NCBI GenBank assembly: GCA_964016885.1
Contig: OZ024741.1
Coordinates: forward strand, 204,290,001-204,354,000
Direction: 5' to 3'
Length of the DNA: 64,000 bases
From: Eledone cirrhosa
Taxonomy: Eukaryota
The notes beneath the pieces are model-generated. The model searched no databases, was not told where the DNA came from, and worked only from the letters and a program-made list of their open reading frames with translations. Numbering within the stretch: position 1 is the stretch's first letter; every line of letters begins with the position of its first letter. The translations under genes and the position numbers were made by a program. Shown piece by piece: positions 2,780-64,000 of this stretch.

Positions 2780-4004
2780 TATATCAAATCCATGCACTAT
2801 AACCATATTAACTATTTTTCAGAACATTACTCCATTAACAATTTGCAATGTGCATAGAATTGAAAATAAAGTTCATAATAGAGAAGCATGAAAAAGGCCT
2901 GACTCCACCCAAGATATTTAAACTGGGGAAAATTCTTAAAATCAATAGAATGTTGATCAAAAGGACAATCGATTGATTTAAGGAAACTTCCTCGATCAAA
3001 GACAGACCTCGATCCAGACGCCCTCGCACCTCAAGAACACCAAAACTCGTTAAAAGTGTGAGGGAAAAAATAAGGCGTAATCCAAGAAGGTCCATGAGAA
3101 AAATGGCAGAAGAAACAGAAACATCGCCGAGAACTATGCGGAGGATATGTCGAAATGATCTGGGGATGTCACCCTATAAGTTCCAAAAGAGGGAGCTTCT
3201 TTCTGCAGCCACAATTGAAAAGAGACTCTCCAGAAGTAAACTGTTATTGAACTGTATCAAGGATGGCACGCTGCAAAACATCATCTTTACAGATGAGAAA
3301 TTATTCACTGTGCAGCAGTCTCACAATCATCAAAATGATCGAGTACTTGCAAAAAGTCTCAAATCACTTCCTTCAAGTGTAGGAAAAGGGTTCAGAACAC
3401 AGAAACCAGCATCAGTGATGATTTGGGCAGCCATTTCTGAAAGAGGTAAGTCTCCTCTGATTTTTGTGCCTCAAGGAGTTAAAATTAACAAAGAACTTTG
3501 CATAAAGGATATTTTGGAAGGAGCACTGATGCCATGGTGCATATCTGTTTATGGCGATGACATTTGGACTCTCCAACAAGATGGAACGACGAGCCACACT
3601 GCTTGTATAACACAACAGTGGTGTAGAGACCATTGTCCTGCATGGATCAGTAAGGAAGAGTGGCCTCCCACATCACCAGATCTCAACCCTCTCGATTTTT
3701 CTTTATGGTCAATTCTTGAGAGTGAAACCTGCTCTACTCCTAGCCAAAATATTGAAACTCTAAAATCAAAACTGAATAAAGTATGGGAGAAAATACCCAT
3801 GGAAACTGTTCGTGCAGTCATCGAAGACTTTCCTAGAAGACTTCCAGCGGTGGTGAGAGTTAGAGGAAAGCATTTCGAATAAATTTTTGTGCCGTTGTTT
3901 AATAGTATATTACTTACTATTTGTTGAAGTCAGATCTTGAAATAAATGTTTTTTTCAAGAACTATTTGCATTTTATTTTGTAACAGTTTTTATGCCCCAC
4001 CCTG
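2780..4004 (+). mobile_element. Tc1/mariner DD37D (maT) transposon with one nonsense mutation; left terminal inverted repeat (TIR) not seen
   Basis: ATG at 2848 is in frame with ORF 3058-3882 across a TGA at 2974-2976. Motifs FTDEKLF, QQDG and SPDLNPLD, with 37 residues between the 2nd and 3rd Asp. Right end ...CACCCTG|TA at 4004. Confidence 0.9.
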
Positions 4005-5780: not shown

Positions 5781-6893
5781 CGTATTCTTAGAATATATTC
5801 TTCTTCTCAAAGATGCTGCTTCATGTCTGGCTGCCTGGCTGTTAAGGTGGAAGCCAGTAAGGGCCAAGACAGAGATAGAGTGAAAGGTCTACTGATGCCT
5901 ACATCGTTATCATTTGCTGATTGCTGCTTCGGGTCTGTCCTTTGGGTGTCCTAAGTCGTTGTATTTATAATTGGTGCTAAAGTTAGACGGGTGTATATAT
6001 GAGGTTGATTTATGATCAGCCATGTGGATATTGTCTCCCAGGAAGCTAGGGTCACAGGTCAAGTGGAATGTACGTTTATCATCGTTGACTTGACAGGACA
6101 ATGGTGGGAACTTTCCAATAATGGTTAGTCCCAAAGGCGAGAAACCTCAGATTCGCTTTCGAATCTTCGCCGGTAAAACAGGAGTATTCCGTTATAGATA
6201 TATCTGCAGAGATAAGCATTCGGAATGTGGCTGATGGAATCGGTATTACACTAATAAGGCATTTGAAATTTCTGACTCATTCACTTGTTTGGTGATCCGT
6301 GAGGAGGGTGAAGGAGGCTTGTCCATAATTCTCAGCTGTGACCTATTTTCAGGAACCATCAATGGAGACAAAATTTACAACTGTCATTCAACATTGCTTC
6401 TAAATACACATTTAGCATTTTACTTTACTACCAATTGAGCTTGCCGAATCCAAGATGACAAATGATCATTTTTTAAATAAAAATGAAAATGAAATAAACT
6501 ATTTACATACAGATGTGTGTGTGTGTGTGTGTGTGTAAACTACATACACACACATACACACACGCATATATATATCTATATCCTTATAAAAAGGAAGTTT
6601 GTTTGTATGTTGGCCGCTAATATCACTAAATAAAATTGATAATAATTAAGGTTTTTCTCGTGGGATTTCAACTAATCTGGCCCCATCAAGCTAACTGTAG
6701 ACTTATTTTCCGAAATACCATCGGGGGGGGGGGGGGAGAATTTACTGCTATTTCTAGCACACAGATACTGTCTCTTCCTTCGTCGTGCTATCAATATAGA
6801 GAGAGGGAAACACTTCACGTCTCACTCAAACCACCTCCTCCTCTCTCTAACTAAAACATTTGTTGTCGGCCGATTTGACATCTGACTTTCGTG

Positions 6894-7930
6894 GATGAAC
6901 GTCGTGGATGAACGTCTGTCCGGGTACCTAAAGGTCGACTGGTGGTTCAGGAAGCGTTCCTTAAATCGGCCCTCCGCCAAACCCACATAGGATTTGACCT
7001 CCTGTGGTTGATTTTGTCGGTTGGAAGTGACCACAGCTTCATAAATTACAGCGGGTGTGTTGCATTGCTGTTGAAGGGGACAAGCTTCGGGCTTACGGCA
7101 AGAGCACTCTGGTGGGGTGTTGCTCTTAGGGCTGTTTGTGATGTGGGCCTTCATGTTCTTAGCGCATGAGTATCCTAGTTTTACTTTGTGTCGGTTAAAG
7201 ATGGAGCGGTATTTATGACCTATGGGAAAGTGTCTATCTAAGAGGGTTAGAAATTGTTTGCCTACATTGGTTTTAACGTTGAGTGAGAATGCAACACACC
7301 CGCTGTAATTTATGAAGCTGTGGTCACTTCCAACCGACCAAATCAACCACAGGAGGTCAAATCCTATGTGGGGTATGGCGGAGGGCTGATTTAAGGAACG
7401 CTTCCTGAACCACCAGCCGACCTTTAGGTACCCGGACAGACGTTCATCCACGAAACTCGCGAGCCACGTATAGTCCCTCAAGGACTCAAGTATAGACTAC
7501 TCCATTCAATGGAAAGCCATCACTAAGTCCAAGCCATACGCAAGGGGAAATCCGTCGTGTGGACTATGTATTGATGAACGAATAAATATTCTAAAGAGAT
7601 TATGCAATAGTGATTGCCTAAACACGAGAAATGAATTCTTCACACGTTGTCCACATGTCTCGAAACACCTCTTACATAACTACAACGCTCCAGATTGAAT
7701 CACAACAACATCCTAATTTTCTTATCAACTAGAAACTTTTCGGACTTTCGCAGTTATCTCCCTTACACCTCTCGCACGCTTTTTAGTATTGCTTGTGTGA
7801 AGTGACGGTTTCTGCGCATGCGCGTTCGTACGGCTATCCTTTCTGTTCCGTATAACCATGTCCATTACGAGCTGAGGATCCGCTAAGGTGAAACAATTGT
7901 TCTCGGTATGGTGAACTAACTGTTGTGTAA
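6894..7930 (+). mobile_element. PLE 3' portion (GIY-YIG endonuclease and pLTR) with an inverted 5' segment
   Basis: 7287-7700 (+) encodes VIYEAVV...YVG.AEG.FKERF.NH...CGLCIDE...LNTRNE..RCPH. 6894-7286 is the inverted, overlapping upstream part (CSCRKPEACPL linker). Hammerhead at 7868-7905. Confidence 0.85.
7868..7905 (+). ncRNA. Minimal type I hammerhead ribozyme motif
   Basis: CGAG-CTGAGGA-tCCgctaaGGt-GAAA-CAATTG (palindromic stem III)-TT-CTCG. Confidence 0.7.
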
Positions 7931-15699: not shown

Positions 15700-16990
15700 G
15701 TCATGATGATCTCCGATTTCAGGTTGACTGCGTCATCCTTTAATCTCATTATCTCCATGGCCTCGGGGGCACAGCCTGCACTTCCCCTCGCCGGCCGAAT
15801 ATGCACTGGCACGTTGAACGATACTCCAGTTGAGATCGTACGTGGTGCCGCTGTCCTTCAAGTCCCATATCAGGTCCGCCAATCTAGTGGAGTGTCTCTT
15901 GCTCCGGTCCTTGAAAGAGTTCGTGTGATTGTAGATCTTCGATTTAAAGGTCGTGGATGCTGCGCCGATGTAGGTGCGCTTGGTGTTGTGCGTGCTAACC
16001 ACACATTTGTAGACAACGCCCTTCATTAGACATCTTTCCTGCAGAAGGCATTGTGTGCCCACTCGGCAGTTGCATGTTCGGGCTGTATGCTGCTCATTCC
16101 TTATGTTTATACCATTACTTATTTGTATAGGTAAGTATATTTTACCTGTATTTTTTGTAAAGGTACGTATACTTTCTCGTACATATATTTGCTTGTATAT
16201 GTTATGGCGTGTATATTATATATACTGGTACATGTGCATATCGTTATGCGTATACCAGAGTTTTGCGTCGGTGTGAGTATGCGGATTCGTACGTATGTAG
16301 GGTGTGTGTATATGTGTACTTTGTGTTTTGGTTGACGTACGTCAGCGTACATATGTGTTTTACAGATGGTATGTGTGTGAGCGCGTTTATACGTATTTAT
16401 GTGTGTATATTTCTATACGTTTATATAATTATACACTCACACACACATATATATTTTTTTTTATATATATTTTTATGTGTATTTGGTGTATATGTTCGTA
16501 TGCGTTCGGGTACGGGCATTGCGTGGGGTCTGTATGTGCGTGCGTGTTGTTGTTTTTGTTGTTTTTTTGTACGTGCTTGTATTGGCATACCCGTTGCGTG
16601 TGTTTTCGCGGATGCTTGTGTATGTACGTATATGGTTGCGTGCATGTATATATTTAATTTCGATTACCTCTGTCATTTATTTACTTTATTCTTAACTCTG
16701 AAGCCGGGAATCATTCGGTTTCCTAATAGAATTTTAGTCTACGACTTCAGTTATACCATATAAGTGGTTTTGTCTTTGCGTGTAATTGTTTTCACCGCTC
16801 CAATTTATGACGTATTATCTTTGTCTTTCTCCGTTCTTTGCCAGGGAACGTTTCCACGAACCAAAGTATCGTCTTCCTGTCTTCCTTCGGTTGCAACGTT
16901 TGTTGAAATATTTACATCTGCGTTCATAGATTGATTTTTTTAGTTTCAGAAGGTCCCGTTAAGGGTGAAAGCAGCGATTCTTTGCTTAAA
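15700..16990 (-). mobile_element. Degenerate PLE
   Basis: GIY-YIG ORF 15733-16062 (VVYKCVV...YIGAA..FKSKIYNH...CRLC), upstream TCNCR linker and IWYN at ~16750. Inverted degenerate hammerhead at ~16945-16975. Confidence 0.8.
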
Positions 16991-22139: not shown

Positions 22140-22312
22140 GAGATTCTACAGGACTAGAACTGTTTCATGCTTTAGAAATCATCAGGAATCTGGCTTTCCA
22201 AAAATAAATGTTGTGGTATTTATATCTTTTCAGGTGGTAGAAGAGGGTAGGGAGTAGGATGGGTGGAGGTCATTGGTTGAAAGAAAAGGGAATTCATTAA
22301 AAGCTAATTCTT
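22137..22312 (-). mobile_element. pLTR-like repeat with a degenerate hammerhead
   Basis: Reverse complement of 26299-26475. CTGATGA-tttctaaagcat-GAAA. Confidence 0.65.
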
Positions 22313-24225: not shown

Positions 24226-25130
24226 TTCCTTGCTCACATTCCAACCAGGTTTGATGGTCTTTATTCTCTCACGTTCACGATTTCACCGAACTTATATTCA
24301 TGGAAATTTGGGACTTGACTCGTTCTTCCTCATTTTTCGTTGCTTCACCATCTTTGTTTGTTTACACTCTCGTGTCCCCTTTATTTACGTGTCCCAACGA
24401 CTTTTTTAGCCGTTGCTCGCACCAACCGGAGGTATATGGTCTTTAAAGCGATAAAATACCAATGATGGTTGGAAGATCACTGATGAAGGACTAACTTTAT
24501 TCATATGTAACCCATTAGCAACCACGCAGCACGTTTATTCTCATATTTACACATATTTTTTCCCCCGCTGTGACCCGTCTATTTCGTTCTTACTGCTTCC
24601 TCTTTCTCTGTATCTTTACGCTCTCTAACAGTCACTCTCTTTGTTAGCCTCTTCCTCACCCTTCACTCACTCACTCTCTGTTACTACCTCTCCTCCTCCT
24701 CCTTCTTCCCGTTTGACCTGTGCGTAATTCTTTTCTTTCGCACGCTTGGTCAGGCTGGTTCGACTTTTCTCTCTCTCTCGTCTACGATTTCACAGAACTT
24801 ATGTTCACCGAATTCACAGACTAGACTCCTTCTTCCTCCCGTTAGACCTGTACGGAATTCCTTCCTTGCTCACATTCCAACCAGGTTTGATGGTCTTTAT
24901 TCTCTCTCGTTCACGATTTCACCGAACTTATATTCATGGAAATTTGGGACTTGACTCGTTCTTCCTCACTTTTCGTTGTTTCACCATCTTTGTTTGTTTA
25001 CACTCTCGTGTCCCCTTTATTTACGTGTCCCAACGACTTTCTCGCGCCAACCGGAGGTATATGGTCTTTAAAGCGATGAAATACCAATGATGGTTGGAAG
25101 ATCACTGATGAAGGACTAACTTTATTCATA
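24223..25130 (+). mobile_element. Partial tandem repeat (~630-bp period), pLTR-like
   Basis: 24223-24505 is repeated at 24859-25130. An inverted copy lies at 47637-47778. CTGATGA near each unit end. Confidence 0.7.
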
Positions 25131-26298: not shown

Positions 26299-26475
26299 AG
26301 AATTAGCTTTTAATGAATTCCCTTTTCTTTCAACCAATGACCTCCACCCATCCCACTCCCCACCCTCTCCTACCACCTGAAAAGATATAAATACCACAAC
26401 ATTTATTTTTGGAAAGCCAGATTCCTGATGATTTCTAAAGAATGAAACAGTTCTAGTCCTGTAGAGTCTCATCTA
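26299..26475 (+). mobile_element. pLTR-like repeat with a degenerate hammerhead
   Basis: CTGATGA at 26425-26431 and GAAA at 26444. Inverted twin at 22137-22312. Confidence 0.65.
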
Positions 26476-26554: not shown

Positions 26555-26631
<77 letters not shown>

Positions 26632-27059
26632 CTATGGCCATTACTTTTTCGCTTTCTCGTCTATTTCTCAAAGTTTTAGCCCCTCATCTATTTATTACGG
26701 TGGCTATCCATCTATCTCTTTCAGTTTTCTAACTTCCTACTTGTTAATTACAATTCGAACACATGTATGTGTATATTTGTGTTTATCTCTCTTGTATATT
26801 CAATTATGTTACACGGCTCAGAAAAACTTCTTTCTTGGAGCTATTTAATTGTAAGAGACTATTTTGAGTTTCTAACTCAATATCTGATATTGTCGGCTCC
26901 GTCTCGTTGAGCTAATTTAAATGTCGTGTAAACCAGGCTGCTAATTTTAGCAGCATGTGTTTATGAGACACGCTAGGCTCTGAAGACATGTGCGTTATTT
27001 CATATCACACATTATTCAGTCTTCTGATATACTTAGAAATGGAAGGATTGCTAATTTTT

Positions 27060-27139
27060 AACACCTACTGATGAGCAGAAAGTTGGTGATTCCTTCGCTT
27101 AATAATTTGTGAAACAGCTCCTATAACTGTCTAGGTGTT
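27060..27139 (+). ncRNA. Canonical type I hammerhead ribozyme
   Basis: AACACCTA-CTGATGA-GCAGA..TTTGT-GAAA-CAG..CTG-TC-TAGGTGTT: 8-bp stem I, intact core, GUC triplet with predicted cleavage after 27131. Confidence 0.85.
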
Positions 27140-27559
27140 TCAGGTGCCCAATATAGGTTTGTTCTTCTTTTTCTTGATTTATTACTTTTAATTAAGTCTG
27201 ACACACCATATTGTTATAGTTAGTATTTTTTTCACCCTAGTGAACTTGGTCCTTTACAATTCGAACACGTGTATGTTTATATGTGTGTGTATCTCTCTTG
27301 TATATTCAATTATATTACTTGTTAATTACGATGTTTTTATAATGTGACATCTACTTTGTATTTTTTTTTTTACTTTTTGCTCTACGCACCCTCCGCATCA
27401 CTCCCACCCCCTATCCACCACCTTCCAGCTAATGTTTGGCAGACATCGCCTTGCACCCCTCCCCTCTCTACCATCTCCCGGCCGTTGCTTACACTCACAC
27501 ACACAATTACTCTCCTACATCACCAATGTCAATTCGCTGCTCTGAAAACCGTTAATGAT

Positions 27560-30500
27560 TACATCGGGCAGACGTGCACTCTGAAATCCGTCTAGGAGGG
27601 CAGTGACTCCGATCTAAAACAAAAACGATTGAAGGAGGTTGGTGTAGACTCCGTAAGCAGTAGTGAAGGCCATCCGTCTGGGAGAATAGACACTCCAAAT
27701 AAAAACTGATACAGGATGGAGAGGACTCTTGAGTTCAGTAAGACAATCTCTCTAGTGTTGGTGGCACGAATGTTTCCAGTCTACGTTGTAAAGTGTTTGG
27801 TGATAGGAAGGGCATCCAGCCAGAAAAACCCAGCCAAAAATACGAAAAACACGACAAATATGATTCTTACTAATTGCGTATACAAGGATAACACTAATCA
27901 TGTTAGTGCTGGGAACAGAAGTGGGGTGTCTAGAGAAGCCGTGTGAGAGAACCCATCGACCATCATCAAGCAATTACACATCCACTTTCCATTTCAGGTA
28001 CATAGAATTTATACCAAAAAAAAACTAACAACTGTCAAGTTACAAATCTCAGAACTGCCACCCTCGATGTCGGCACATTGAAAGGTAAATCAGGTGAAAT
28101 TGCGGAACTGTTAGAGAGAAGAGAAGTTGATGTATGCTGTGTACAAGAGGTGAGATGGAGGGGTGCCTCAGTGAGACTAATCACGGGTAAACAACAGATA
28201 TAAACTTTACTGGGTAAGAAATGACAATGGTAGTAGGAGGTGTAGGCATTCTGCTAGCAGAGAAATGGATAGACAAAATGATAGAGGTAGTTAGAGTAAG
28301 TAACATAATTATCAAGCTTAGAATAGCTGTAGGAAATAAAATGGTGACAATTAAAACTACCTATGCACCACAGGAAGGACTGAGTAAAAAACAAAAGAAC
28401 CAATTCTATTACAGGAACTATTACAGACAACCTTAGTTATTAGTGAAAGAGACCTCATCATCCTGGCAGGCAACTTCAATCGACATGTAGGGCAGTATCA
28501 CGGCAGATTCTGTGGAGTTCAAGGCAGCTATGGTTATGGCTCAAGAAATGAAGAGGAATTGAGGCTCCTGCAATTCTGTGATGCAAATAAACTGATCATT
28601 TGCAACATAAATTTCAGGAAACCCACTAACTATCTGGTCTCATATCAATCAGGCGAACATACAAGCCAAATTGATTACTCACTTGTAAAACAACGAGACT
28701 GTAATAAATACCAAGGCCTTCTCTGAGGAAGAATGCACCACCCAATATAAGTTAGTTATTAGGGACATGAAAAAAAAAACAGAAGACAGAAGACAATCAG
28801 GAAAATATGGAGACGAAAGTTTGGAAGTTAAAGGACCTTTCAGTTAATATAGGTTTAGAAAGCACCTGCGGAATGCACTTGATGAGGGGAGTGATACATA
28901 TAACGTAGAGGACAATTGGGAATTCTTGTGTGACAAACTTTTGTGAAATACTGACGAGACTTGCAGCTGGAGTGAAGCACCGGTCAGACAGGAGGGGACC
29001 TAATGGGGGAACAGCACAGTGAATGCAGCCATTAAAACAAAGAGACGGGTATGGAAAGACTTGGAAAGTGGGGGTAGCAGAGATTAGTAACAGGTAGCTA
29101 AGAAAGAAGCTAGACAACAAGTATACCCAACTCGGAGAGAGGCTGATGAAAGAAAGTTTGCGAATGTCTTCAGGTGAAGACCAGTGGCGCGAAATGTTCC
29201 GCACCGCAAGGCAGTGTCACTGTTGTGTAGCTCCCACTATTTCAATTTTGTGAAGGTATATGGCCTATTGGTTAGGGTGTTGGATTCAGGATCATAAAGT
29301 TTGTTGTTGAGGAAAAGTATGTTAGACATGACACTGGTGCATTTAGCACCACTGATGCTCAAAACAATAAAGCCTGGAAATGTTACTATGGGAGACTGAT
29401 GAATGTAGAGAATGAATGGGAGGAAGAGATACTACCCCCAACTTATCCAAAGGAAGGACCAGCTATTGAAGTTGACGGAAATAGTTCTAGCACAGCTAAT
29501 TAGAGAAAGAGTCAAACAAGACAAGAAGCACTTTGGTTTCATGTCTGGGGGAAGTACTACAAATGCCCTCTTCTTAGTGAGATAACTATAAAAGAAGTTC
29601 TTAGCCAAGAATAAGCCACTACATCTAGCTTTTGTTGACCTAGAAAAGGCCTTTGACAGAGTACCTCGTTCTGTTATCTGGTAGTCCTTAAGGAAATTAG
29701 GTGTAGAAGAATAGCTTCTGAGAACAGTACAAGCCATGTACAGGGGAGCTCTCTGCAAAGTGAGAGCATAAAGTGAGTTTAGTGAGGAATTCAAGGTACA
29801 GGTAAGAGTTCATCAAGGTTCGGTTCTTAGCCCACTGCTGTTCATCATAGTTCTCCAGGCCATAAGAGAGGAGTTTAAAACGGGTTGTCCATGGGAACTT
29901 CTCCATGCAGATGATTTGGTCCTTATAGTTGAAACCATAAAAGAACTAGAAAATAAGTTTCGATTAAGGAAACAGAATTTAGAATGAAAGGGGTTAGGAG
30001 TAAACTTGCTAGTGAGTAGAAAGAAGATAGGACCCTGATTCCTTCAGGGAAGTGGCCCTGCTCAATATACAGAAAAGGAGTAGGCAGAAATTTTATACTA
30101 TGTACACAATGTAAATCCTGTGTAAACGGGATGTAGTGGGATAACAGGTAGATTAACAGGAAGGGAAGACTTTGTATGAGTCACAGGGGTAAACGTGAAG
30201 AAGAGCGTCTATGATATGAACCTTTTTCTGTCACAGGACGGGTCCATAGAATTTGTTGGTGGCTTCTGCTATCTAGGTGACTCAATTAGCAGCGGAGGGG
30301 GTGCGTTGAGAGCATAATAGCTAGAATAAGGTTAGAATGGAAAAGTTTAGAGAGCTACTCTCACTGTTGACAACAAAAGGTTTCTCCCTACATATAAAAG
30401 GACGATTGTATGGCGCCTGGGTGCGAAGTGCGAAGCTGCATGCTAGTGAAACATGGGCAGGTACTGCAGAGGACATGCATAGACTGGGGAGAAATAAAAC

Positions 30501-34425: not shown

Positions 34426-37320
34426 ATGGCAAAAAGTACAAGTCTCCTTCGACCAAATCACAACTACAACCGTTGTATACAGTGGAGCTACGAGCTTAAC
34501 AAAGAATTATATGAAGCATACAAACAATCTGTACCCCAAAAGTTCGGTTTTATGCAAAGGCTAAAAAATTTATGGAACTCCAAACACCCAGAATTAGACT
34601 TTTCGCCAAAGCATTTAAATGAACAGGCAAAACGTATCATTAGATGTAAATTGATACATCTAACGGAATTGAGTGATACTACAAATACAGCCCTTGTAGA
34701 CAACCACCCCACCTCCACTGACAGACAAAGAGAATGGCCAGCTAAATCTAATAGTGAACAGCTCACCAACAATTTTGCTGAAATCCATCCCACTTCCACT
34801 GAAGAACAGCGAGAATGGTCAGCTAACTCTAGTAGTAATTGTCACCATATCAACAACGAGGCTGAAATTCATGACTCTACTGTACAAACAGAACACCAAA
34901 AACTTGTGGACACCTTACAAGTGATATGGGACGATATGTTTCAAGAGATACACAGCCTTAATGTGAGTGACAGACCATACAACACCAGAATCAGTAAAGA
35001 ACCCACTAAATTTGAATTGGAAGTGGTGAACGAAATAACTGGCAATTAGCTGAAGGCTATACGATCTAAAGGTGTAGAAACGACATTTGAAACGCTTAAT
35101 ATTTTGTTATATGTTTCAGCTGTCACATTGCTATCATATAACACACATCTAAAACCACGCAATCAAGATACAAACAAAAAGCCTGAACCAGCGTGGATGC
35201 GAAATTTAAAAAGCAAAATTTTGTCCCTGAGACGAAGTATCTCACACATCGCAGTCGTTATGAAATGCAACATAGAGAGCAACTTCACACGACACCAGGA
35301 AGACCTAAAAAAAAAAGTTAGAGAGACGATTTAGAGATACAAAATTTAAAACTTTGAACTCCAAATTACACCAGTTGAAACAACAACTCACAGCTACAAC
35401 AGAAAGATTAAAATATAAGTCAACAGCACATAAACGACAAGTACTAAATAGATTGTTTGCCAGAGATCCTAAATCAGTTTATCGCAGCTTCGGTGGCAAA
35501 AGCTCAATCCCTGTAAATGACACCCCTTCAAAAGAACAGGTTGAGAGCTACTGGAGATCTGTATGGTAAACGGATGACGGATTCAACAGACAAACTGATT
35601 GGCTAAAAGAACTGGAACAGGACTACTGCCAACATGTCCAGACAAAACAAGATGACATAGATGGGTCAATACTGGAAACAGCTCTACAGAAAATATCGAA
35701 TAGGAAATCACCAGGCCCAGACCTCATTACAGGATACTGGTTGAAGAATTTCACTTTCTATCGGCAAGATCTCATACGGCTGTTTACAGAAACCATTAAA
35801 GGCACACAAGAATTGCCCAGATGGTTATCAACTGCCACTACTCTCCTCATTCCCCAAAATAGCCAAACCACCCTTGCTAAAAATTACCGCCCAATAGCCT
35901 GCCAAAACATCATGTATAAATTATATACTGGGTGCCTTAACCAGTTCTTACAGGATCACTGTGCTACCAACTACATCATAACACCTGAGCAAGCTGGTGG
36001 AAAGAGGGAGGTGTGGGGTTGCATAGATCACCTACTAACTAATAAAATGATTCAGGAAAAAACAACAAAGAACCGCAGAAACATGACTGTGGTGTGGCTT
36101 AACTATCAAAAAGCATTTGATAGTGTACCTCATGGGTGGATTATTAAGGCTTTACAGTTAGCCAAAGTCCCACAACCATTGGTAGCTGCTGTTGAACGCC
36201 TGACCAAGAACTGGTACACCAATTTGATCCTTAGAGGTGAGAAGGAGCAAGTTAAGACTGATATGATACATTACCAGAAGGGCATCTTTCAGGGTGATAG
36301 CTTGTCAGTGCTACTCTTCGTTCTCTCACTAAATTCACTATCTTACCTACTCAGGAAACAAGGTGGACAAAGAAGTGGGTCCAGAAGTATCTCCCATCTT
36401 TTCTTTGTTGATGACCTGAAGTTGTATGGGCCAAATATCAATGACATCAAGAAACAATTGGACCTCATTACACAATTTTCAACAGATATCAAAATGAAAT
36501 TTGGTGAGTCCAAGTGTGTATAATTGGCAGTAAAACGTGGAAGAGCTGTGCCCTCCTCTAGAAATCTAGAGATGAACGGCCTGACAATACAACCTCTACA
36601 GTCAGGTGACAACTACAGATATCTTGGACAGGATGAGAATGTCAGATATGATGGACCCATAAATAATGAGAGAACCAGAACTGAATACCTCAGAAGAGTA
36701 AAGAAAATATGGTCATCAGAACTGTAAGCGTACAACAAATACATTGCCCACAATACTTATGCTGTGCCAATTCTAACGCCAACATTTGGCCTGCTGAACT
36801 GGTCATTGCAAGAACTAAGTGAGATGGATGTTAGAACTCGCAAACTTCTCAGTGTTACTGGGAACTTTAACATCAATGGTGATGTGGATAGGCTATACTT
36901 CTCACGCAAGGAAGGTGGCCGGGGTCTAAAATCCATATTAACAACATATGAGACCCGGATAGTAACACTGAAGCAACACCTTCAACAGAGGAAAAAGGTT
37001 GGCAACCATCTTGCCCAGGTTTATGAGCATGAAAGAAAAAATATCATTAGAATAGCGACTGATCTGGAGGAGAGATATGGAATAAAGCCTCATATAAATC
37101 TCTCACCCAGAGAAATCGGAAGATCCTATTCAATGTTCAAACAAGATGAAAAAATTGACCAATTTACAGAAAAAGTTGTGCATGGATACTTGAGACGTAA
37201 AACACAGACTATAGAGGGGATAAACCACTCAAAAAGCCTGGCATGGAGTTCCGACAAGTTTATGACATCACACCTTGAGGGATATCTCTATGAAATACAG
37301 GAACAAGAACTCCCTACCAA
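34426..37320 (+). mobile_element. R4/Dong-like non-LTR retrotransposon, interrupted ORF, 3' end missing
   Basis: NYRPIAC, YQKAFDSVPH, GIFQGDSLS, HLFFVDDLKLY, FGESKC, YRYLG, RLYFSRKEGGRGL and EIQEQ. Confidence 0.85.
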
Positions 37321-39245: not shown

Positions 39246-39939
39246 TATGTATATATATATATATATATATATACTATAAGGATAAGGAACAAGGATTCAG
39301 TGTTGCATCATAATATATATATAACATATATATAGCACATATGTTTATTTTAGGTATATTTATATGTCAATCAATTTCTAGTTGATATAAAATGCTCGGA
39401 TCTATTCATTGGAATCTTGGAGCATATTTTACGGGTGATATGGTGCATGTCTATCTGACATGACACCCTTAATTTAACTTAATTTTGGATATATTTAAAT
39501 ACGGCCCCTTAATTGTAGAGCTAACTCAGTTGAAAGGACTTGACTGCTATTTCTAGTTGTCGATAACCCTATTCACGCCACTGGGACGAAGCTGGTACGA
39601 TGTGTGTATTTTTAGTAAATACAGCACGTGTTACTAGCCAGTCGCTGATTTGAATTTGATGCGTAAACACAGATAGTTAGTCCTCTTCCTTGTTGAAAAT
39701 CCAGGATCTGGCTACTGTCGTTTACCAATCGATTAATTGGTGAAATATATTTCTTTAATGGAATATATACAAGGAAGATTAATAAATTTATAAGGTATCT
39801 ATTTTTGAAGTTCTAGTTAAACTTTATTTAGTTACCTACATAGCTGTGTGTGCTTACACACTTTTACAAATTATCCCCTGTGATTGTTTCATATGTTTAT
39901 TTTAGATATATTTATATGTCAATCAATTTCTAGTTGATA

Positions 39940-42900
39940 TCTCTATATACATAAAACGGTAGATGTCTGTCTGTGTGTGTGTATGATTTTTATGCATTTC
40001 CACATTTCTCTACCGATTTTGATGAATTTTTTTCCAATGTGCTCCAAATTTACCAGGGCAGGTCAACACGTAATTATTTTTGCCAAAAATGTCCTCCTTC
40101 TATGAAAACAAATCGATAAAACTAAATACATGCTGTAACCCTCTCTCTTACATGCTTCATTCCTCTCACTACTACCATCAAAAATATATGAAACTACATA
40201 CATGCTGCAACTCTCTTTAAAAGGTTCATATTTTCCTCTACTCCACTCTCAATCTCCTCTGCAACTCTCTTTAAAAGGTTCGTCACTCTCTCTACTCCCC
40301 CTCAATCTCCTCTGCAACTCTCTTTAAAAGGTTACTGCCTCCGTCTACTACCCTATCAACATTACAATTTAGAACGACAAAACTTCTTTTGAAGGAACGC
40401 GATACAAACTTTGAAACCTAAGCAACACAACAACCATAGCTTTACTCTCTCTGACGCTCTTCACTCCCTATATGACAACACTGCAGTGGAGCGTTCCGTA
40501 TTGAGCGTTCCGTATTGGCATACGGCTTATCTGGGGCATTTTCAATCGGCTTATTGCTAATAATAACCCGCAATATAACACTTCATATAACAGATTAATG
40601 CTATAGACATATGAATCGGAATGTAACCCGTGAACTTTTTCCTGGGCAAAATTATTCGAACAGACATGACCTCATTGCCAGAGTGTTCAGACTGAAACTA
40701 GCTAAACTCATGGCTTTAATCAAAAAGGTCAGGAATTTGGGGCTGTAAAATGTGACATGTTCACCGTCGAATGGCAAAAACGAGGGCTGCTTCATGCTCA
40801 CATTTTTATTTGGTTAGCTGATAAAATTAATTCAAATGCCATAGACAGCTTCATTTCGGCTGAAATCCCTAACCCAGCAACTGACCAGGAATTACATGAC
40901 ATCGTCAAAGCTAACATGGTCCGTGTGCGTCGGGTCCTAATGAGCATCACACGTGTCTGAAAGGGGGGTCATGCAGTAAGGGATACCAAAAAGATTTGTT
41001 GGCGAGACTCAGACTGGTGACGATGGGTACCCCCTGTACAGGCGGAGACGGCCCGAGAACGGTGGCTTCACCACAACAGTAAAGGGAGGTCAAGTCCACA
41101 ATAGATGGGTGGTCCCTTACTGCCCGCTTCTCTTGAAGATGTTCAACGCCCACATCAACGTTGAGTTTTGCAACTCCGTCAAGTCTATAAAATACATATG
41201 CGAAAATGTAAATAAGGGCTCTGATGAGGTCACAGAATACCTGGCGGGGCGGTACATCAGTAGCAATGAAGCTTTTTGGCGCCTATTTGGTTTTCCCCTA
41301 CACCAACGGCACCCCGCCATCGTACAGCTTGCGGTACATTTGGAAAATGGGCAAAGGGTTTACTTTACGGACCAAACCGCCGCCAAGCTGGCCGCCGATC
41401 CGAAAGAGTCCACTCTGACATGTTTCTTCAAACTTTGCCAGTTCGATACATTTGCACAAACAATTGTGTACCCCCAGGTTCCATCCGACTTTATATGGTC
41501 GAAAAACACTTGGGTGCGAAGAAGGTCAGGTCAGGCTGTTGAAAGACATCCTGGTGTAACATTTGACAGCTGTCTTGGAAGGGTTTACACTGTGCCCCCA
41601 AGTCAGCATGAGTGCTTTCATCTCCGCCTTCTTCTGCATGAAGTTGTAGGCCCACAAAGTTTTCAAGGACCTCAACACTGTTGATGGAGAAATATGTGAT
41701 ACGTACCGGGGAGCCGGCTTTAAGCGTGGTCTTTTGGAAGATGTTTCGCAATGGGATTCCACTTTAGCAGAGGGTGCTTTGTTGAAATCACCTAAAGGTC
41801 TATGGGAACTCTTTGCCATTTTGCTTCAAAAGTGTGACTTGGGTGATCCCAAATCTTTATGGGTCAAGTACAGAGACTTCATGTCTGAGAATTTCCTGCG
41901 CCTGGCTCATCTGCAGTATCCTTCAGTGGAAGTTGCTTACAGCGGCATTATCTACAACAGGGCACTCATTGATATCGAGGACGCCCTCCTCGACATGGGT
42001 GGGAGTGAGTTGGCGACGTATGGCTTGCCGTCAACCGTCACAGATGAAGCTAACACGTTGGCCCCGGATTTGTTGCAGGAAACAGAATATGACATCGAAT
42101 CTCTTTCCCAATACTTAGAAGAAAATGAGCCCAAACGTCTGTCGGACCAAAGGTTGGCCTATTTAACTATCATTGACGCGGTTCAAAATCAGACTGGGGG
42201 TATTTACTTTCTCGATGCTCCTGGGGGTACCGGAAAAACTTTTGTAACAAAATTGATTCCCGCTAAGATTCGTCAGGAGAGAAAAATTGCGTTGGCCGTT
42301 GCATCATCCGGGATCGCTGCTACTTTGCTGCCGAGAGGCAGGACAGCACATTCAACCTTTAAACACCCCTTGGATTTAGTAAAAAAATGAGACACCAACA
42401 TGCAATATCAGCAAGAGCTCACACGAAGCTCTGGTTCTCAAAACATGTTGCCTCGTTGTTTGGGATTAGTGCACAATGGCACACAAGGGTGCCCTTGAGG
42501 CATTGGACAGGACCCTGAAAGACATTAAGGATTCTACGGGTCCTATGGGTGGCGTAACACTTCTGCTATCAGGGGATTTTCGGCAAACGCTGCCTGTCAT
42601 CCCCAAAGGGACAAGAGCTGATGAAGTGCGTGCCGGCCTTAAGTCGTCCACGTTGTGTCCTCGGGTGAAGACTTTGTACCTGAGCACAAATATGCATGCT
42701 CATTTGCATGGTGACAACATGTCTGCAGCATTTGCTCAGAACATTTTAGCACTTGGTGAGGGCAAGGTCCCTGCGGATGACAAGGGCGGCATAGCAATCG
42801 ACTCCCTGTGCAACATTGTGAGCAGCCCTTCTGACCTTTGGCAGGCAGTTTTTCCTAATGTCTCATCTAACTTTAAAAACTTCGATTGGCTCAGCGAAAG

Positions 42901-43823
42901 AGCCATCCTTGCTCCGAAAAATGCCATGGTTAATTTTATTAACGAGCAGCTGATTGAGAAAATTCCCGGTAAAGAGCACATTTTCAAATCTATCGACCGG
43001 ACGTCAGACCCCGACGATATCGTTAATTATCCGGTTGAGTTATTAAATTCCCTTGAGCCTCCAGGGCTCCCACCTCACATTCTTAAGCTTAGGATTGGCT
43101 GTCTCATTATGCTAATAAGGAACTTGCGCCCACCAAAGCAGTGCAACGGTACTCGCATGGTCGTCAAGTCAATGACGCCCCACTTGATTGAGGCCACCAT
43201 TGTAACGGGGTGCGGGAGAGGGGAGAATGTTTTCATTCCAAGGATGAACCTTTTCCCCTCGGCCTCAGATATCCCGTTCGATTTCCGGCGATCCCAATTC
43301 CCGATGAGACCATATTTTGTCATGTCCATTAACAAGTCACAAGGGCAAACATTGTCGGTGGCGGGCATCCATTTGGGGGAGCCATGCTTCTCCCATGGTC
43401 AACTTTACGTTGCTTGTTCCCACGTAGGGAGCAGGAATGCACTTTTTGCTTACACTCCTCAAGGGGTGACACGCAATATCGTCTACAAGGAGGTGCTATA
43501 GATGTTGGTGCAGGTGTTGGAGGTGTTGGAGCTATGCCGTCTGGAAAACTATTTCCTGGTAGGGTCACCTATGGTGGACAGATGTGACACCCAGCGGCAT
43601 CAGGGCCACCATCTTGCAACTTTGGTCTGCTAAATTCGCTATTGGAAGATTATTAACCCATCATTGATTGTCCAAAATGCTAATTGGTTCGTAACTTTTA
43701 ATAACCGGTTCAATTGCTTTATGCACTTAATCGATAACCTTATGCGCTTTCAAGCCACGTTTACCTGTATGTAACTTTTCATAGCAAAGGAATAAACCCG
43801 AGCAACGCCGGGCTAAACTGCTA

Positions 43824-45229: not shown

Positions 45230-45300
45230 ATATCCGCCGCCTCTGCAGCCGAGATGCTGACTTTGACCCCTAGTCAGCCATTTCATCCGCAGAGGTTAAC

Positions 45301-45331
<31 letters not shown>

Positions 45332-47183
45332 ACACCTCGTCCACATCGCCCTCACTCGCGCCCGTGCTGTTCACCGCTACACCACGCTCACCCCACGCCA
45401 CCACACACCCACCCACCGTCTCCCCTTCCCCATCACCTACCACCCCTCCACCCTACCCCTCCACCGCACCATCCTCCGCCTCTTCCGACCCCTCCACCTC
45501 CCACATCTTCCCATCCCCACCACTCCCCTCCTTCAAACGCGCACGCAATCTCCGCACCCTTTCCCCCCTCTCCTGTTCCCTTCCTTGTTCCAGGCCTCGT
45601 TGCAACACCTGCCCCCACATCACCAACACCACCACCTTCCAGGGTCCCAACGGCCACTCTCTCTCTGTCCGGCATGCCTTCCGCTGCACCTCCTCCAACC
45701 TAGTCTATGGACTTCGCTGCACGGAGTGCAGCGCAACCTACGTCGGACAGACTGGACGTCGCCTGGCGGACCGTTTCACCGAACACCTCCGGGATATTCG
45801 TCTCGGCGGGAGTTCCCCCATCGCCCGCCACTTTGGCTCCCCTGTACATTCCGCGCACCACCTCACAGTCTGTGGCCTACTCCAATGCCACGGAACACCC
45901 GCCACCCGCCTCAGGGTCGAACAACGCACCATCTTCACCTACAGACCCACACTCCCCCCGGCCTGAACTCCCCACCCCTATTCCTTTAGCCTTCGACCAC
46001 CCTGTTCCCCCCCCCCCACACACACACACATATCCCCCACTAACACCACTAACACACTCCTCCTTTTCACCGCCCACCCCATAACTAACAATACTAACAC
46101 ACACACACACACCCCCGACCCCGACCCCAACTAACAATACTAACATCCCCCCCCCTATCACGCACACACCCACCGGTACATATATACACGCACTCACTAT
46201 CCACACACCCTACTACCGCCACTAACCCTCACCCACACATCCACTCCCACCACCCCACAACTAATACCACTAACATCCTCCCGACCCCACGCACACGAAC
46301 ACACACACCCACCCACACCCACTTGCACCACCCACTCTACACACCCTAACACCACTGACCCCCACTAACACACCCGCATTCAACCCTTTCCCCACCACCA
46401 GTATACTAACACCCACTAACACCCCCTTCACCACACACACACTCAGCCAAACACGCACACACACACCAGTACACTACACTCCCTCCACCGTCCCCCACAC
46501 CCTTTCTCTCCCTCTCCCCGCTCCACCCCACACCCTCACACACACATCCCACTAACACCTCTACTAATACACACCCCATCCCCCCGCACTCCACTTTTCA
46601 CACCTACCCACCCTCTCCCCTGTCCACCGCACCTCCGCACACACTGACACACTGACTTTCTCCACCTGCCATTCTCCTCTACTGCTGCTATGCCTTGACC
46701 CTCTGACCACTTCTCCGCACACACAGACACACAGCCCTCTCCACCTGTCATTCTCCTCTACCCTCCTCCTGCCTTGACCCTCTGACCACTTCCTGTTGCG
46801 CGCGCACCCCACATCTCCCCTCTTCCGACCAACACAACCACGGATTACACACCATTGGCCATCGTTCCCACTATCAACTCCATCACATGGAAAATATCCG
46901 GCATCTGACCACACCCGGAACTACCTTAGGAACTTACCCACGGACATACACTCACAAAAATCTTTTTTCTAACCACGCCACCTACATCCACAATACGTAT
47001 AAACACCACACACACGTGCGTACCCCCACATATATACACACTCAGTCTCCGGAATCCTCTCTCCCCTCTCCCACCCCTCTTACCCTCCCCATCCACACAC
47101 GCATACGCACACCGACCTACACCCCACCCCACACACACACCTTTTCCTGAACATGGAACCTCGTTCTTCCCCCAACTCACATT

Positions 47184-50646: not shown

Positions 50647-51285
50647 CTACCCACCCGGGTCGTTATGGGGTTTGAGGGCGAGGTAAGTCCTACGCAATCT
50701 GTGTTTGCATGCGGTTACCAGTTCGTCTTTCTTGTTTAGGAGTTGGTCCTTCGAAAACAACATTTGTAATGTTTCCTCCGAGCATAGGTTACACGGACGG
50801 CGTCCTCCCGTGTAAGAGTTAGCTCTGGACACTAAGCTCCAAGTGAGATTGTAGGTTATATTATTATCTTGGAGGTCCCAGATGTGGCCCGAAAGTGTAG
50901 TGGCATGTCGCCGGACCGGGTTTCGGAAAGTATGTCGGTGTTGGTAGAGCAGGGTCTTGAAGTCACACGCGGTTAATCCAGGCAAGTTCAGCCACCCCTA
51001 CCTCCCACCAAATGCCATGATAGACTTATTTGTGTTTACAACAAATTTTAACCAATCCTCTTGACAACTACAATCTTCCCATATAAGGAAGTACCCCCTT
51101 GACAAGTTCGGCTATTTATTCACCAGTCTAAAAATTCTAATTTAGTCCAGAAATAGCCGTCGAAACGGCTTGAGCTCTGCCGTCGGGGTCATACTTTTTC
51201 CTATTTCCCACCCACTCTACTACCCTAAGTATTGAGTACTCTGGTGCATTATGGTCCATCTGGTTCCTTACCACAATTCCTTTGT

Positions 51286-52137: not shown

Positions 52138-52344
52138 TGGTGGGAAATTAAAAAACAGAGCAAAGCATCAGTGATGGTTTTCAATCAGTAATTTTTTGAA
52201 AATATGTGTATGAGCAATTTCTTTTTTATTTCGTGGTGCGTGTGTGTATGAGAGAGAGGGAGAGAGAAAGAGAGAGAATCTAATGAGGGTTATTACATAT
52301 TTAATTTTGGTTTAAATCTGTTAGTAAATAGTATTTATTTATCT

Positions 52345-52690
52345 CAGGTACTGCAATGGGCACAAAGGTAGCCCCCACATACGCCAACTTAGTCATGGGA
52401 TTCCACGAACAAGAAATTTACAACCAATTCCTTCTATTATTCGGAGACTCTTTCGTTACACATCTCAAAAATAATTGGAAGAGATACCTAGACGGTTGCT
52501 TTATACTATGGCAGGAAAACATGAATACACTCACTAACCTGCCTCAACACTTAATTTTAAATCTTTAATTTTTAATTCTTTTTAATTGTAATACTCAACA
52601 TTTGATAAGATGGATTTCACTGATGCATCGAAACCGGTTATATTTTATATATTTTATATACATTATGAAACTTTTTTTACAAGAATTGTT
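52345..52690 (+). mobile_element. Internally deleted PLE: RT core joined to the 3' end
   Basis: GTAMGTKVAPTYANLVMG...WKRYLDG, then directly into the 38840-39100 family sequence. Confidence 0.8.
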
Positions 52691-53699: not shown

Positions 53700-56220
53700 T
53701 TAGAGATTTTTAAAGATCAATGTTGGAAATTGAAGATTTGGTCATGCCTGGAGATTAATAGGTCCTTTCTAATTATGATTCAAGCAGTTCTAGCAAGCAA
53801 AGTTCACATTCTCGTTGTTTGTGCTAATATGGTCTGGCCGATTGTATAATTGATTCCAGATAAATGCCATTGACTCACATAAGTTTGGGTTCTTAAATGA
53901 GTGTGTATGCACATTTAGCTGGGGGTTGAAGAAATTTCAGGTAGTCTTCACATATTTATACATACCTAGGTTTGTAGTAATTCTACATTGATATATGATA
54001 TTCTTATATAGGCATTTTCCTATTAAAGAAGATTTATCAGGTTGTCTACAGTTATAGTTTTTCCATGTGTGCTGATTGAGGTTTGGTCCTGTTTGAGTAT
54101 TTGGAGTGGTAGTGGAATTAGTAATGGGTTAAATAAGATTGACTTGTTTTTTAAGTTTGTTGTTTGGGTCTGCATATCAGTTTTTTTCTTTGATTTTTTG
54201 TGGGTTTTTTTCGTGTTTTTTTTTTGGGGGGGGGGGGAAATGATGACATTCTCTATGTTGGTGCCATCCATCCATTACAAGTTTTGAGTTTTTTTATGTT
54301 GTAAGTAAAGAGACATTTAAGGTTTAAATTAGTTATAAAATGTTGGAGGTTCATGGTAATTGTAGAATAGCTGATGGTTCTCCTGTTCAACATTTGATGG
54401 TATCTATGGGAAGGAAGGTTTTATCTATTATTTTAAAGAAAAGAAGAGAGATTTTAGTTTTCACCTGAATATTATGTAAAGGGTTATACCAGAGATATGA
54501 TTTAGAGCAGGATTTTGGTACGGCATTGGTTAGGGATTTTGTTTATCATCAGTGGTTACAGTATTTATATGATTCTGTACGGTCAGCATTCCTTTGTTGT
54601 TTGTGTTGGTATGAGTTTGAATGGTTTCCAGGGTGATTCTGCATCTGGTACATATTTCATTGTAATATTAAATCCAGCCATTTGGAGCGCATTATAGTTG
54701 CCTGCGACTGGTTCAGTCGATACGGCTGGTTATAGTCGATACGGCTGGTTTAAATGCTAAAGGGTTAAACATTATAACATACTCTCACAAGTCCATATTA
54801 AAATTTTTCATGAATGAAATTACTTGATATTGTTTTAGTACAACCAATGACATTTTTACAATATAAAAACATATAATGAAAACTAATTCACACAAAACAT
54901 AAACAATCCTCATTTTCCTACAACAGCTGATATGTTTTATCTAAGAATCAAGGACTACAGAAATAACTTTAAAAATGAGACACATAATGTCTCTTGTGTG
55001 TTGAGAAGGAAGATATCAGTGCAAATGACGAGAGAGAAGATTAGAAAGACACAAACAAAAGGCTGTTAACAGAATCCTACTGAAATCACTGATATTCACA
55101 AGGTTTCAGAATAAAATAAGAATTAAGAGACTAAGTCCATTGAATTTTAACATGCTTAACCCTTTAGCAATTAAACCAGCCGTATCTAACCAGAATTCTG
55201 TTCAAACTGGCTGTAACTGGCCACTCATACTACATTAAGGTATAGTTCCCAAAATAAATATCAAAATCTCATAGATTCAATATTATGTGAGGTAAAGCCT
55301 TTGCCTTGAAAATATAATACTAAATATAGAGTAATGTAAATACTAAAGGGCTAAAGGTAGTTTGAGTTGTGGAGAGACTGGAGATCCTGAGATATTCCTT
55401 TTATAATAGAGTTAATAATGGCCCGAAGGTGGTTAGAGTTTGTTAACACATGTAAGGTTTTCATTAGTTTTATGGAAGGGTTTGAATAGACCGGAATTTA
55501 GTTGGCAACCTTATAATTGTGCCCAAAGGTAATTTTTAAGTGTATGTGCTTAAAGAAGGATTGAATTGCCTTTGTTCTACATTCGAGCTGTTGCTCATTG
55601 AAATTATTGACCAGTAGAAGAGTGTCGTCTCTATAAATTCCACCATGAAGATCCGTAAATTCTAAATTAAGCTTATGCAATAGATAAATTTCAACTTTGT
55701 CTGTAACCGGGGCTGAATCACTGGATCCTATAGTTATTTTGAAGTTACTGATCCTATTCTTACATGTCCAGTATTCATTTTAGAATTTAATTACCGAATA
55801 TCTAGGGGCTAGCACTATTTTGGCTTCTTCCCTAGTTAAATCAGAGTTCTGCATTGTGAATATAAGGGCCTTATTGAGGAGATCGGGAGGAATGGATAAT
55901 AATCATCAATGTTGAACTGGATAAATTTTGATATAGATTTGTCATCTATCCTAGTAAACCAGTTGATTACCTCATTGGTTCTGTCCCAGAGTTTAATTAG
56001 CTGATTTACTGCTCTATTTAATGTGTTTGCTTATATCTCCTATGTCAGATTTAGAATGGCAGATAAGTTTAATCATTGGGTTAGTTTCAAAGTCATTTTT
56101 ATGATCATTTAGGTTAAATATAGGTTGTCTAGGTTCAAACGATTCTGTAGTCTGCTACTCCTAATCTATTTACTATCGCTAGCCCTTCATATCCTTAATG
56201 ATTGACTTTTCAGTATTCAA
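53700..56220 (-). mobile_element. Old, fragmented PLE (RT to GIY-YIG)
   Basis: RT motif GIYRDDTLL (55498-55680), LWYNPL (~54485), NCRQPDK..GKCLYKNIIYQCRI (~54000) and CELCLLE (~53800). Confidence 0.7.
55157..55353. mobile_element. TTAA-flanked MITE (piggyBac-like)
   Basis: TTAACCCTTTAGCA...TACTAAAGGGCTAA inverted termini. An orphan end lies at ~54742-54767. Confidence 0.65.
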
Positions 56221-62353: not shown

Positions 62354-64000
62354 TGTTACTGATAATGGTTGTGATACTGATAATGGTTGTGATACTGATA
62401 ATGGTTGTGTTACTGATAATGGTTATGTTACTGATAATGGTTATGTTACTGATAATGGTTGTGTTACTGATAATGGTTATGTTACTGATAATGGTTATGT
62501 TACTGATAATGGTTATGTTACTGATAATGGTTATGTTACTGATAATGGTTGTGTTACTGATAATGGTTGTGTTACTGATAATGGTTATGTTACTGATAAT
62601 GGTTGTGTTACTGATAATGGTTATGTTACTGATAATGGTTGTGTTACTGATAATGGTTGTGTTACTGATAATGGTTATGTTACTGATAATGGTTATGTTA
62701 CTGATAATGGTTGTGTTACTGATAATGGTTGTGTTACTGATAATGGTTGTGTTACTGATAATGGTTGTGTTACTGATAATGGTTGTGTTACTGATAATGG
62801 TTGTGTTACTGATAATGGTTATGTTACTGATAATGGTTATGTTACTGAAAATGGTTGTGTTATTGATAATGGTTATGTTATTGATAATGGTTGTGATACT
62901 GATAATGGTTATGTTACTGATAATGGTTGTGTTACTGAAAATGGTTGTGATACTGATAATGGTTGTGTTACTGATAATGGTTGTGATACTGTTAATGGTT
63001 GTGTTACTGACAATGTTTGTGAAACTGATAATGGTTGTGTTACTGATAATGGTTGTGTTACTGACAATGTTTGTGATACTGATAATGGTTGTGTTACTGA
63101 TGAATGGTTGTGATACTGATAATGGTTGTGATACTGTTAATGGTTGTGATACTGATAATGGTTGTGTTACTGTTAATGGTTGTGTTATTGATAATGGTTG
63201 TGTTACTGTTAATGGTTGTGTTACTGATAATGGTTATGTTACTGATAATGGTTGTGTTATTGATAATGGTTGTGTTACTGATAATGGTTGTGTTACTGAT
63301 AATGGTTATGTTACTGATAATGGTTGTGTTACTGATAATGGTTATGTTACTGATAATTGTTGTGTTATTGATAATGGTTGTGTTACTGATAATGGTTGTG
63401 TTATATAACCATTATCAGTAACACAACCATTATGTTACTGATAATGGTTGTGTTACTGATAATGGTTATGTTACTGATAATGGTTGTGATACTGATAATG
63501 GTTATGTTACTGATAATGGTTATGTTACTGATAATGGTTATGTTACTGATAATGGTTGTGTTACTGATAATGGTTGTGTTACTGATAATGGTTGTGTTAC
63601 TGATAATGGTTATGTTACTGATAATGGTTGTGTTACTGATAATGGTTATGTTATTGATAATGGTTGTGATACTGAAAATGGTTGTGTTACTGATAATGGT
63701 TGTGTTACTGATAATGGTTGTGTTACTGATAATGGTTGTGTTACTGAAAATGGTTGTGATACTGATAATGGTTGTGTTACTGATAATGGTTGTGATACTG
63801 TTAATGGTTGTGTTACTGACAATGTTTGTGAAACTGATAATGGTTGTGTTACTGACAATGTTTGTGATACTGATAATGGTTGTGTTACTGATAAATGGTT
63901 GTGATACTGATAATGGTTGTGATACTGTTAATGGTTGTGATACTGATAATGGTTGTGTTACTGTTAATGGTTGTGTTATTGATAATGGTTGTGTTACTGT
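62354..64000. repeat. 18-bp minisatellite (GTTACTGATAATGGTT[G/A]T)n in a GTF2F1 intron
   Basis: Roughly 90 tandem units running to the window end. Confidence 0.97.

Follow-up and report, generated by a model that had tools for sequence, protein, structure and literature searches.

Two groups of elements come closest to the locus described here, the non-LTR retrozymes of animals and the Penelope-like elements (PLEs). How retrozymes move, and how the tail and the inverted arms of PLEs originate, are open questions, and published proposals that involve PLEs rest on co-occurrence or on pLTR similarity. A PLE origin of retrozymes, for instance, was proposed from pLTR similarity in Xenopus (preprint 10.64898/2026.07.22.740005). 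A tail, inversions and (TA)n targets are described as PLE features (PMC8557442). The same source gives as marks of the Hydra clade a C-terminal EN without CCHH, a CxCx5C linker, DKT, CxxC and CxH motifs, (TA)n targets and a hammerhead. For a PLE of the anole, two internal starts of reverse transcription and priming of both strands were reported in vitro (PMC11167929). In the giant squid, 235 Rfam hammerheads have been counted, in a passage that gives the number without analysis (PMC6962438).

We analysed 64,000 nt of Eledone cirrhosa DNA (the window), which holds a hammerhead unit between direct repeats. The unit is a real, decayed member of the non-LTR retrozymes, and its value lies in the twin-hairpin signal of its family and in the link of that signal to Hydra-type PLEs. 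Our reading of the locus is an old copy of a hammerhead repeat, ending before twin hairpins that Hydra-type elements share; a Hydra-type enzyme is likely to have copied it.

The copy in the window

Table 1. Features of the hammerhead unit, in window coordinates
Feature	Position	Strand	Remark
Insertion	26748..27318	+	one full 506-bp monomer (26748-27253) followed by the first 65 bp of a second; truncated on the 5' side; 3' end = start site 1
Left target-site duplication, 14 bp	26738..26751	+	last 4 nt overlap the 5' end of the element (microhomology)
Right target-site duplication, 14 bp	27316..27329	+	first 3 nt overlap the 3' end of the element
Right terminal repeat (nt 1-65 of the unit again)	27254..27318	+	terminates at start site 1
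Reverse-transcription start site 1 (inferred), internal copy	26807..26809	+
Penelope-type 'tail' between start sites	26810..26890	+	site 2 at ~26890
Hairpin 1, CGGCTC...GAGCTA	26814..26843	+	just 3' of site 1; common to Hydra-type elements; z -2.25
Hairpin 2	26894..26914	+	just 3' of site 2; own fold weak (z -0.96)
5' flank strand of conserved 18-21-bp helix with loop II	27037..27060	+	partner 27078-27100
Type I hammerhead	27060..27139	+	sequence reading and descriptor scan; predicted cut after 27131
Stem I	27060-27067 / 27132-27139		8/8 Watson-Crick
Core CUGAUGA	27068-27074
Stem II	27075-79 / 27106-10		G.U at base
GAAA	27111-27114
Stem III	to 27130		CAG/CUG beyond A15.1-U16.1

The original prediction had described a direct repeat of ~60 bp around slightly more than one monomer, with no recognisable ORF. 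Both points were borne out: the terminal repeats (26748-26812 and 27254-27318) extend over 65 nt at 92% identity with a spacing of 506, and the longest ATG ORF overlapping the unit has 47 aa. Its outer coordinates also coincide with a target-site duplication of 14 bp (26738-26751, 27316-27329), which is exact (2 matches versus 0 in 100 shuffles) and is visible because this copy sits at a non-microsatellite site. The left flank (26630-26751) is single-copy in the genome, and an empty-site test through a repeated flank was dropped for that reason. The right junction is unchanged in contigs covering 27253-27716 (0 differences), from three runs of one sample with genomic-DNA-like behaviour.

Compared with the family majority, the window copy has 26 differences in 506 nt; 4 nt are deleted after stem I, and the outer flank helix shows a G>A substitution. 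The copy holds one hammerhead and no inverted arm. We infer that it is a one-armed product of start site 1 at a non-microsatellite site, and it is an ordinary decayed insertion.

Other repeats populate the window. A LINE endonuclease-like remnant, seen by eye, lies downstream of the unit at ~28000-28600. Three further stretches (41650-43498, 2977-3879 and 35570-36520) hold fragments of a Helitron-like PIF1 helicase, a transposase of Tc1 type and an RT, and an 18-bp minisatellite of at least 91 copies (62354-63999) runs off the window end. A repeated short CUGAUGA element that ends in (TA)n occurs at 24480, 25105 and 47661 and may be a truncated PLE end. The stretch 39496-39557 resembles the hairpin-2 region of the unit in degenerate form (E 0.004) and may be an old, distant relative.

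Family A and its sister families

The window unit is one copy of a dispersed, protein-less family, here called A. Searching the 3.0-Gb genome with the unit gave 3413 first-look candidates, 40 of which were scored and showed 83-100% identity. Exact patterns, whose counts are lower bounds, matched at least 728 times for a 24-mer of the tail, at least 104 times near the junction and at least 64 times for an intact core, against 0 matches for the reversed controls. Three sister families, B, C and D, are colinear with A round the whole monomer at 65-82% identity to it. Monomers measure 498-523 nt in A, 518-532 in B, 536-549 in C and 543-562 in D, with a GC content of 0.31-0.35. Units inside one family-A locus are ~94% alike, so the family is old.

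Conservation of the hammerhead was followed in 50 aligned family-A sequences. In the alignment 91.7% of cells are paired, compared with 30-42% when it is slid, and covariation reaches 0.146 versus 0.093 after shuffling (0/500), a test that relatedness inflates. Two-sided changes occur in stem I (U-A 30, C-G 18) and in stem III (U-A 25, C-G 18). Between families the sequence of stem I varies and its pairing is kept, and B-D have a long stem III; a cross-family control of stem I is inflated by G.U pairs and was left out of the evidence. Fully intact cores were counted in 32/67 copies of A (the window copy is not among them), 9/11 of B, 19/21 of C and 31/38 of D. In family D, C3:G8 is replaced by U3:A8 in 38/38 copies, an exchange reported to be natural and active (PMC3088659). 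The compensatory changes in these alignments indicate a ribozyme kept under selection in all four families. A 7-bp outer 'pseudoknot', whose changes are mostly one-sided, was discarded in favour of a longer helix that joins the 5' flank to loop II.

Two further arrangements were seen in the sampled loci. A fifth, distant, two-armed hammerhead unit of ~560 nt lies beside a PLE of another clade (L056:700-2000). In locus L193, three 173-nt retrozyme pieces of identical length at ~295-nt spacing represent local tandem duplication after insertion.

Insertion footprint and twin hairpins

The footprint of family A was scored on 153 segments from 89 distinct loci, which remained from 195 mapped segments after duplicates and segments cut by a locus edge were dropped. 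Loci were picked by whole-unit similarity (30), junction pattern (30), intact core (30) and by hand (22), a selection that over-represents read-through of the cut site. We found 131 of the 153 3' ends at two sites, 74 at site 1 (q52-67) and 57 at site 2 (q130-143), and (TA)n follows 91 of these 131; 5' ends are scattered. The cut site is crossed by 97/153 segments and crossed twice by 9, which are tandem copies with two hammerheads, in a sample partly chosen for the hammerhead. Few ends fall near the predicted cut (3' ends 2/153; 5' ends 1 versus 3.3 expected), and the longest segment, 855 nt, is shorter than two monomers. Head-to-head inversions are present in 50 of the 89 loci: 32 inverted pairs combine site 1 with site 2, 5 are same-site and 13 have an irregular arm. 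The copies of the family thus bear a Penelope-type tail-and-inversion footprint. The original prediction of a reverse-transcribed, circularly permuted ribozyme unit, with tandem or permuted copies to be found by a BLAST-type search, agrees with the dispersed copies recovered, with their fixed 3' and variable 5' ends and with the number that cross the cut site.

A CGGCTC...GAGCT hairpin is present in two copies, and each start site lies 2-5 nt 5' of one of them. This rule extends to the sister families, where ends at hairpins 1 and 2 number 3 + 5 of 9 in B, 13 + 15 of 33 in C and 15 + 20 of 40 in D; loci of B and C were found by a pattern that contains hairpin 1. Spacing of the hairpins differs (64 nt in B, 80 in C, 83 in D), and the ends move with them. 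Genome-wide, the twin-hairpin pattern has 866 matches versus 9 in the control. The hairpin stems are nearly invariant and are without covariation of their own.

A Hydra-type element with the same hairpins

We examined 35 GIY-YIG loci for the hairpin pattern and found it outside retrozyme copies only in L053, where it belongs to a Hydra-type element; many of these loci are without 5' ends, which makes the set a weak control. A genome search with the Hydra-type protein gave 70,565 first-look candidates, of which 150 were scored. ORFs of the family have 826-844 aa with DKT, CxCx5C, CxxC and CxH motifs, and its copies combine a C-terminal EN without CCHH (by eye), (TA)n targets and a hammerhead. 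A Pfam search returned no match for the C-terminal part of the protein. The clade assignment is made by motifs, with RWR instead of RWK and a unit of ~5 kb versus the <3 kb listed for the clade. The family is very young, with 22 copies identical over 251 nt. Loci L308-L312 and L243-L277 hold a young autonomous Hydra-type PLE with many open frames above 800 aa, in ~5-kb tandem units with a long AT-rich 3' region.

In this element the twin hairpins precede the ORF, ~92 nt apart, and hairpin 2 of the window copy is identical to its counterpart at 17/21 nt. Of the tailed copies among the matches listed, 24/25 stop directly ahead of hairpin 2 and continue as AT repeats; in 5/10 loci the inverted arms break off 3 nt short of hairpin 1. 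Outside the hairpins no homology between element and unit was detectable (best E 0.11), and the hammerhead of the sampled element is of a different build. Since the sampled Hydra-type family is young and family A is old, it represents a candidate type of partner and may not be the partner family itself. A retrozyme and a young, ORF-intact candidate host share one short RNA signal, present twice, from which both insertion ends are predicted in five families.

The literature search, which covered sources outside subscription journals and supplements, turned up no description of a duplicated start hairpin or of a link between Hydra elements and retrozymes. What appears to be new here is the twin-hairpin signal and its link to an intact Hydra-type element; the retrozyme class itself had already been described. 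We tentatively raise the idea, which we regard as somewhat doubtful, that nothing beyond the duplicated hairpin of 21-30 nt is needed in cis for a dimeric Hydra-type protein to pick the RNA and set two starts, one per strand. If true, this would explain the Penelope tail together with the inverted arms, and a viroid-like circular RNA whose hammerhead locks itself could then parasitise a PLE with which it shares no other sequence. If the signal holds, it would also be a portable tag for Penelope-directed cDNA insertion, and a minimal in vitro system becomes conceivable.

Proposed mechanism and template

The scheme we propose takes as shown the dispersed family, the hammerhead fold, the two 3' ends, the (TA)n targets, the head-to-head arms and the shared hairpins. 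A partial-tandem copy would be transcribed, and the hammerhead would excise a monomer that is ligated into a circle, or alternatively the uncut multimer would be used. A Hydra RT-endonuclease would then bind the two hairpins, nick AT-rich DNA and start cDNA 2-5 nt 5' of either one. If both strands are primed, each hairpin giving rise to one arm, inverted pairs with one tailed arm would result. Reverse transcription that passes its own start point would yield the 'slightly more than one monomer' seen in the copies.

With regard to the template, we lean towards circular RNA and regard an uncut multimer as the less likely alternative. The latter can be put as a reading of its own, with the same family and mobiliser and no circle: an uncut linear read-through RNA would serve as template, and the hammerhead would only trim or release transcripts. 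We hold this version to be less likely than not. As family-A chains are no longer than 855 nt, a finite linear template explains them as well as a circle does, and the longest chains of the sister families (1236 nt in B, 991 in C and 1149 in D, or ~two units) count on the same side. Uncut RNA was moreover the main template of the anole PLE, the one PLE tested, where hammerhead mutants inserted normally (PMC11167929). In Xenopus, only 1/9 predicted retrozymes cleaved (preprint 10.64898/2026.07.22.740005). A same-template test, which compared shared with unshared private changes, was not positive (A 6 versus 153, D 26 versus 112, C 14 versus 80); neither these changes nor the identity of units inside a locus could tell a circular from a tandem template. 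An A>G strand bias was looked for and not seen. Against a purely linear template, however, selection has kept the hammerhead in each of families A-D even though cDNAs read through the cut, ends do not cluster at the cut site (the counts are given above), and the retrozymes of coral, mussel and axolotl are reported as circles (PMC7229834). Eight monomers folded as circles gave z of -3.3 to -8.7 in the sense and -1.9 to -4.4 in the antisense orientation (12 shuffles each). Our preferred model keeps the circle, as a modest preference.

The mobiliser, in this model, is of Hydra type and acts through the hairpins, which we hold to be quite likely. One could instead suppose that an abundant Neptune-type (or other) PLE clade does the work and that the Hydra-like hairpins are a relic or arose by convergence. 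Neptune-like PLEs, a label that rests on an observed zinc-finger linker and on the description in PMC8557442, are indeed numerous in this genome (10,597 GIY-YIG candidates) and are said there to prefer microsatellites too. Yet all hairpins within the 35 GIY-YIG loci belong either to adjacent retrozyme copies or to the L053 Hydra element, and the Hydra element follows the same end rule at both hairpins; we consider a Neptune-type mobiliser improbable. Neptune- and Penelope-like loci L031-L065 were tried as partners and rejected, since the unit matches there are neighbouring retrozyme insertions and not pLTRs.

The hammerhead of the window copy and its flanking helix

A descriptor scan of the 64-kb window returned 3 matches, with the hammerhead of the unit as the only strong one. 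Core positions C3-A9, G12-A15 and U16-H17 and stems I-III are all present, and a GUC precedes the predicted cut 3' of 27131. The perfect 8-bp stem I, the CUGAUGA/GAAA/GUC core and the 3-bp stem III that the original prediction had placed at 27060-27139 are all read there, but its wording 'intact canonical' was too strong. Pair 10.1-11.1 at the base of stem II is G.U (27110 = T; C11.1U), where 60/67 family-A copies have G-C, and the fifth pair of stem III is a C.A mismatch. An Rfam search gave no hammerhead match at the gathering level or at E<=5, and the long loop II probably puts this hammerhead outside the Rfam models. Minimum free energy folding of the window copy yields a structure other than the hammerhead (z -0.35), so the motif is taken as real from the covariation across copies and not from the fold of this one.

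The window copy had also been called the best candidate for an active monomeric ribozyme, a ranking that C11.1U, the stem III mismatch, the 4-nt deletion and a core that is not fully intact do not sustain. That it is fast, monomeric and currently active, with a role at its own locus, is a reading we judge improbable. In its favour are the intact stem I and core nucleotides, and weak bases of stem II are tolerated at times (PMC3088659). However, these lesions stand beside the G>A substitution of the outer flank helix and the 26 differences from the family majority, one hammerhead alone makes excision of a monomer by itself impossible, and the predicted fold is a competing helix, in which the 5' flank pairs with loop II.

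This helix recurs in families A-D. Pairing of 18-21 bp between flank and loop II was found in every family, with mean energies of -15 to -21 kcal/mol versus -6 to -8 after shuffling, and flank-loop swaps between families supported family-specific pairing in part. The helix starts at the distal ends of stems I and II and leaves 6-14 nt for the return to stem II. Because this linker is so short, the full helix would be expected to block cleavage, and a partial one would brace stems I and II. The piece 27040-27160, once proposed for transcription in vitro, takes in the 5' flank, which folds into the competing helix. Most metazoan retrozymes are said to be without such a block of the ribozyme (Discussion of PMC7229834); the conserved flank helix would offer an animal circle a way to avoid cutting itself.

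A second type I hammerhead occurs in the window at 26419-26469 (+) and at about 22140-22190 (-), and was missed by the descriptor scan. It has a 6-bp stem I, a U.U at the base of stem II, a 3-bp stem III and GUA. Its 26-nt core has 10,296 exact genome matches, often in close inverted pairs, and its element terminates in (TA)n at ~26556.

Relation to PLE ORFs

The window unit has no ORF with RT plus GIY-YIG. Searches with Neptune-like proteins over 96, 80 and 30 unit loci gave matches in 6, 3 and 0, and searches with Hydra proteins over 206 and 30 loci gave nearby ORF fragments. In 14 loci with Hydra matches that were checked by coordinates, 4 of which were read, the ORF pieces are separate insertions, and these 14 contain no chimeric two-armed insertions of retrozyme and Hydra element. 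The attachment of all homologues to PLE ORFs had been named as the finding that would speak against the original prediction; in no inspected locus is the unit the terminal repeat of a PLE. In this sample of loci, then, the unit is not the pLTR of an ORF-bearing element. It is very probably a non-autonomous hammerhead element mobilised by a PLE. The opposite case, in which the copies are 5'-truncated pLTRs of an undiscovered autonomous PLE and form no independent non-autonomous lineage, is very improbable: PLEs do show the tail, the inversions and the (TA)n targets (PMC8557442) and PLE ORF fragments lie near some copies, but another unit and not an ORF lies upstream of a full unit, the first 30 twin-hairpin loci all belong to the unit superfamily, the 14 Hydra-match loci show separate insertions and the four families are colinear round the whole monomer.

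PLE ORF fragments also occur elsewhere in the window, Neptune-like at 45274-45963 and 52323-52538, and Hydra-like at 6861-7656, 15769-16095, 50668-50979, 53862-54098 and 55363-56148.

Comparison with known systems

The unit shares with the metazoan non-LTR retrozymes described in PMC7229834 and preprint 10.64898/2026.07.22.740005 an ORF-less, AT-rich monomer with one type I hammerhead, head-to-tail repeats, a highly self-paired circle (predicted here) and co-existing PLEs. Its monomer of 498-562 nt compares with ~170-400 nt in the former source and 51-972 in the latter. In contrast to the retrozymes described there, the unit is found mostly as dispersed insertions of 1-2 units and has a helix predicted to be able to block the ribozyme. 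Its link to PLEs is a twin hairpin of 21-30 nt, whereas the Xenopus link is pLTR homology (10.64898/2026.07.22.740005).

Like the pseudoknotted hammerheads of PMC3088659, the unit pairs the stem I side with loop II in place of the usual loop-loop contact, and family D has the natural U3:A8 in common with them. Its helix, however, has 18-21 bp with a return linker of 6-14 nt, against 6 bp in the tested example of that source, and the active fold probably leaves no room for all of it.

With the Hydra-clade PLEs (PMC8557442) the unit has in common (TA)n targets, partial tandems, an inverted 5' arm, a tail at one end and a hammerhead, and with the sampled Hydra-type family the twin hairpins and the end rule. 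It differs in having no ORF and a tail of ~64-83 nt versus 30-40 nt (PMC8557442), and its hammerhead and body are not homologous to those of the sampled family. The Poseidon PLE of Anolis (PMC11167929) resembles the unit in two internal starts of reverse transcription that define a tail, an AT-rich target and priming of both strands. Both of its starts fall within a single AC-rich stem-loop of the ORF, whereas those of the unit each adjoin their own copy of the hairpin in a non-coding RNA.
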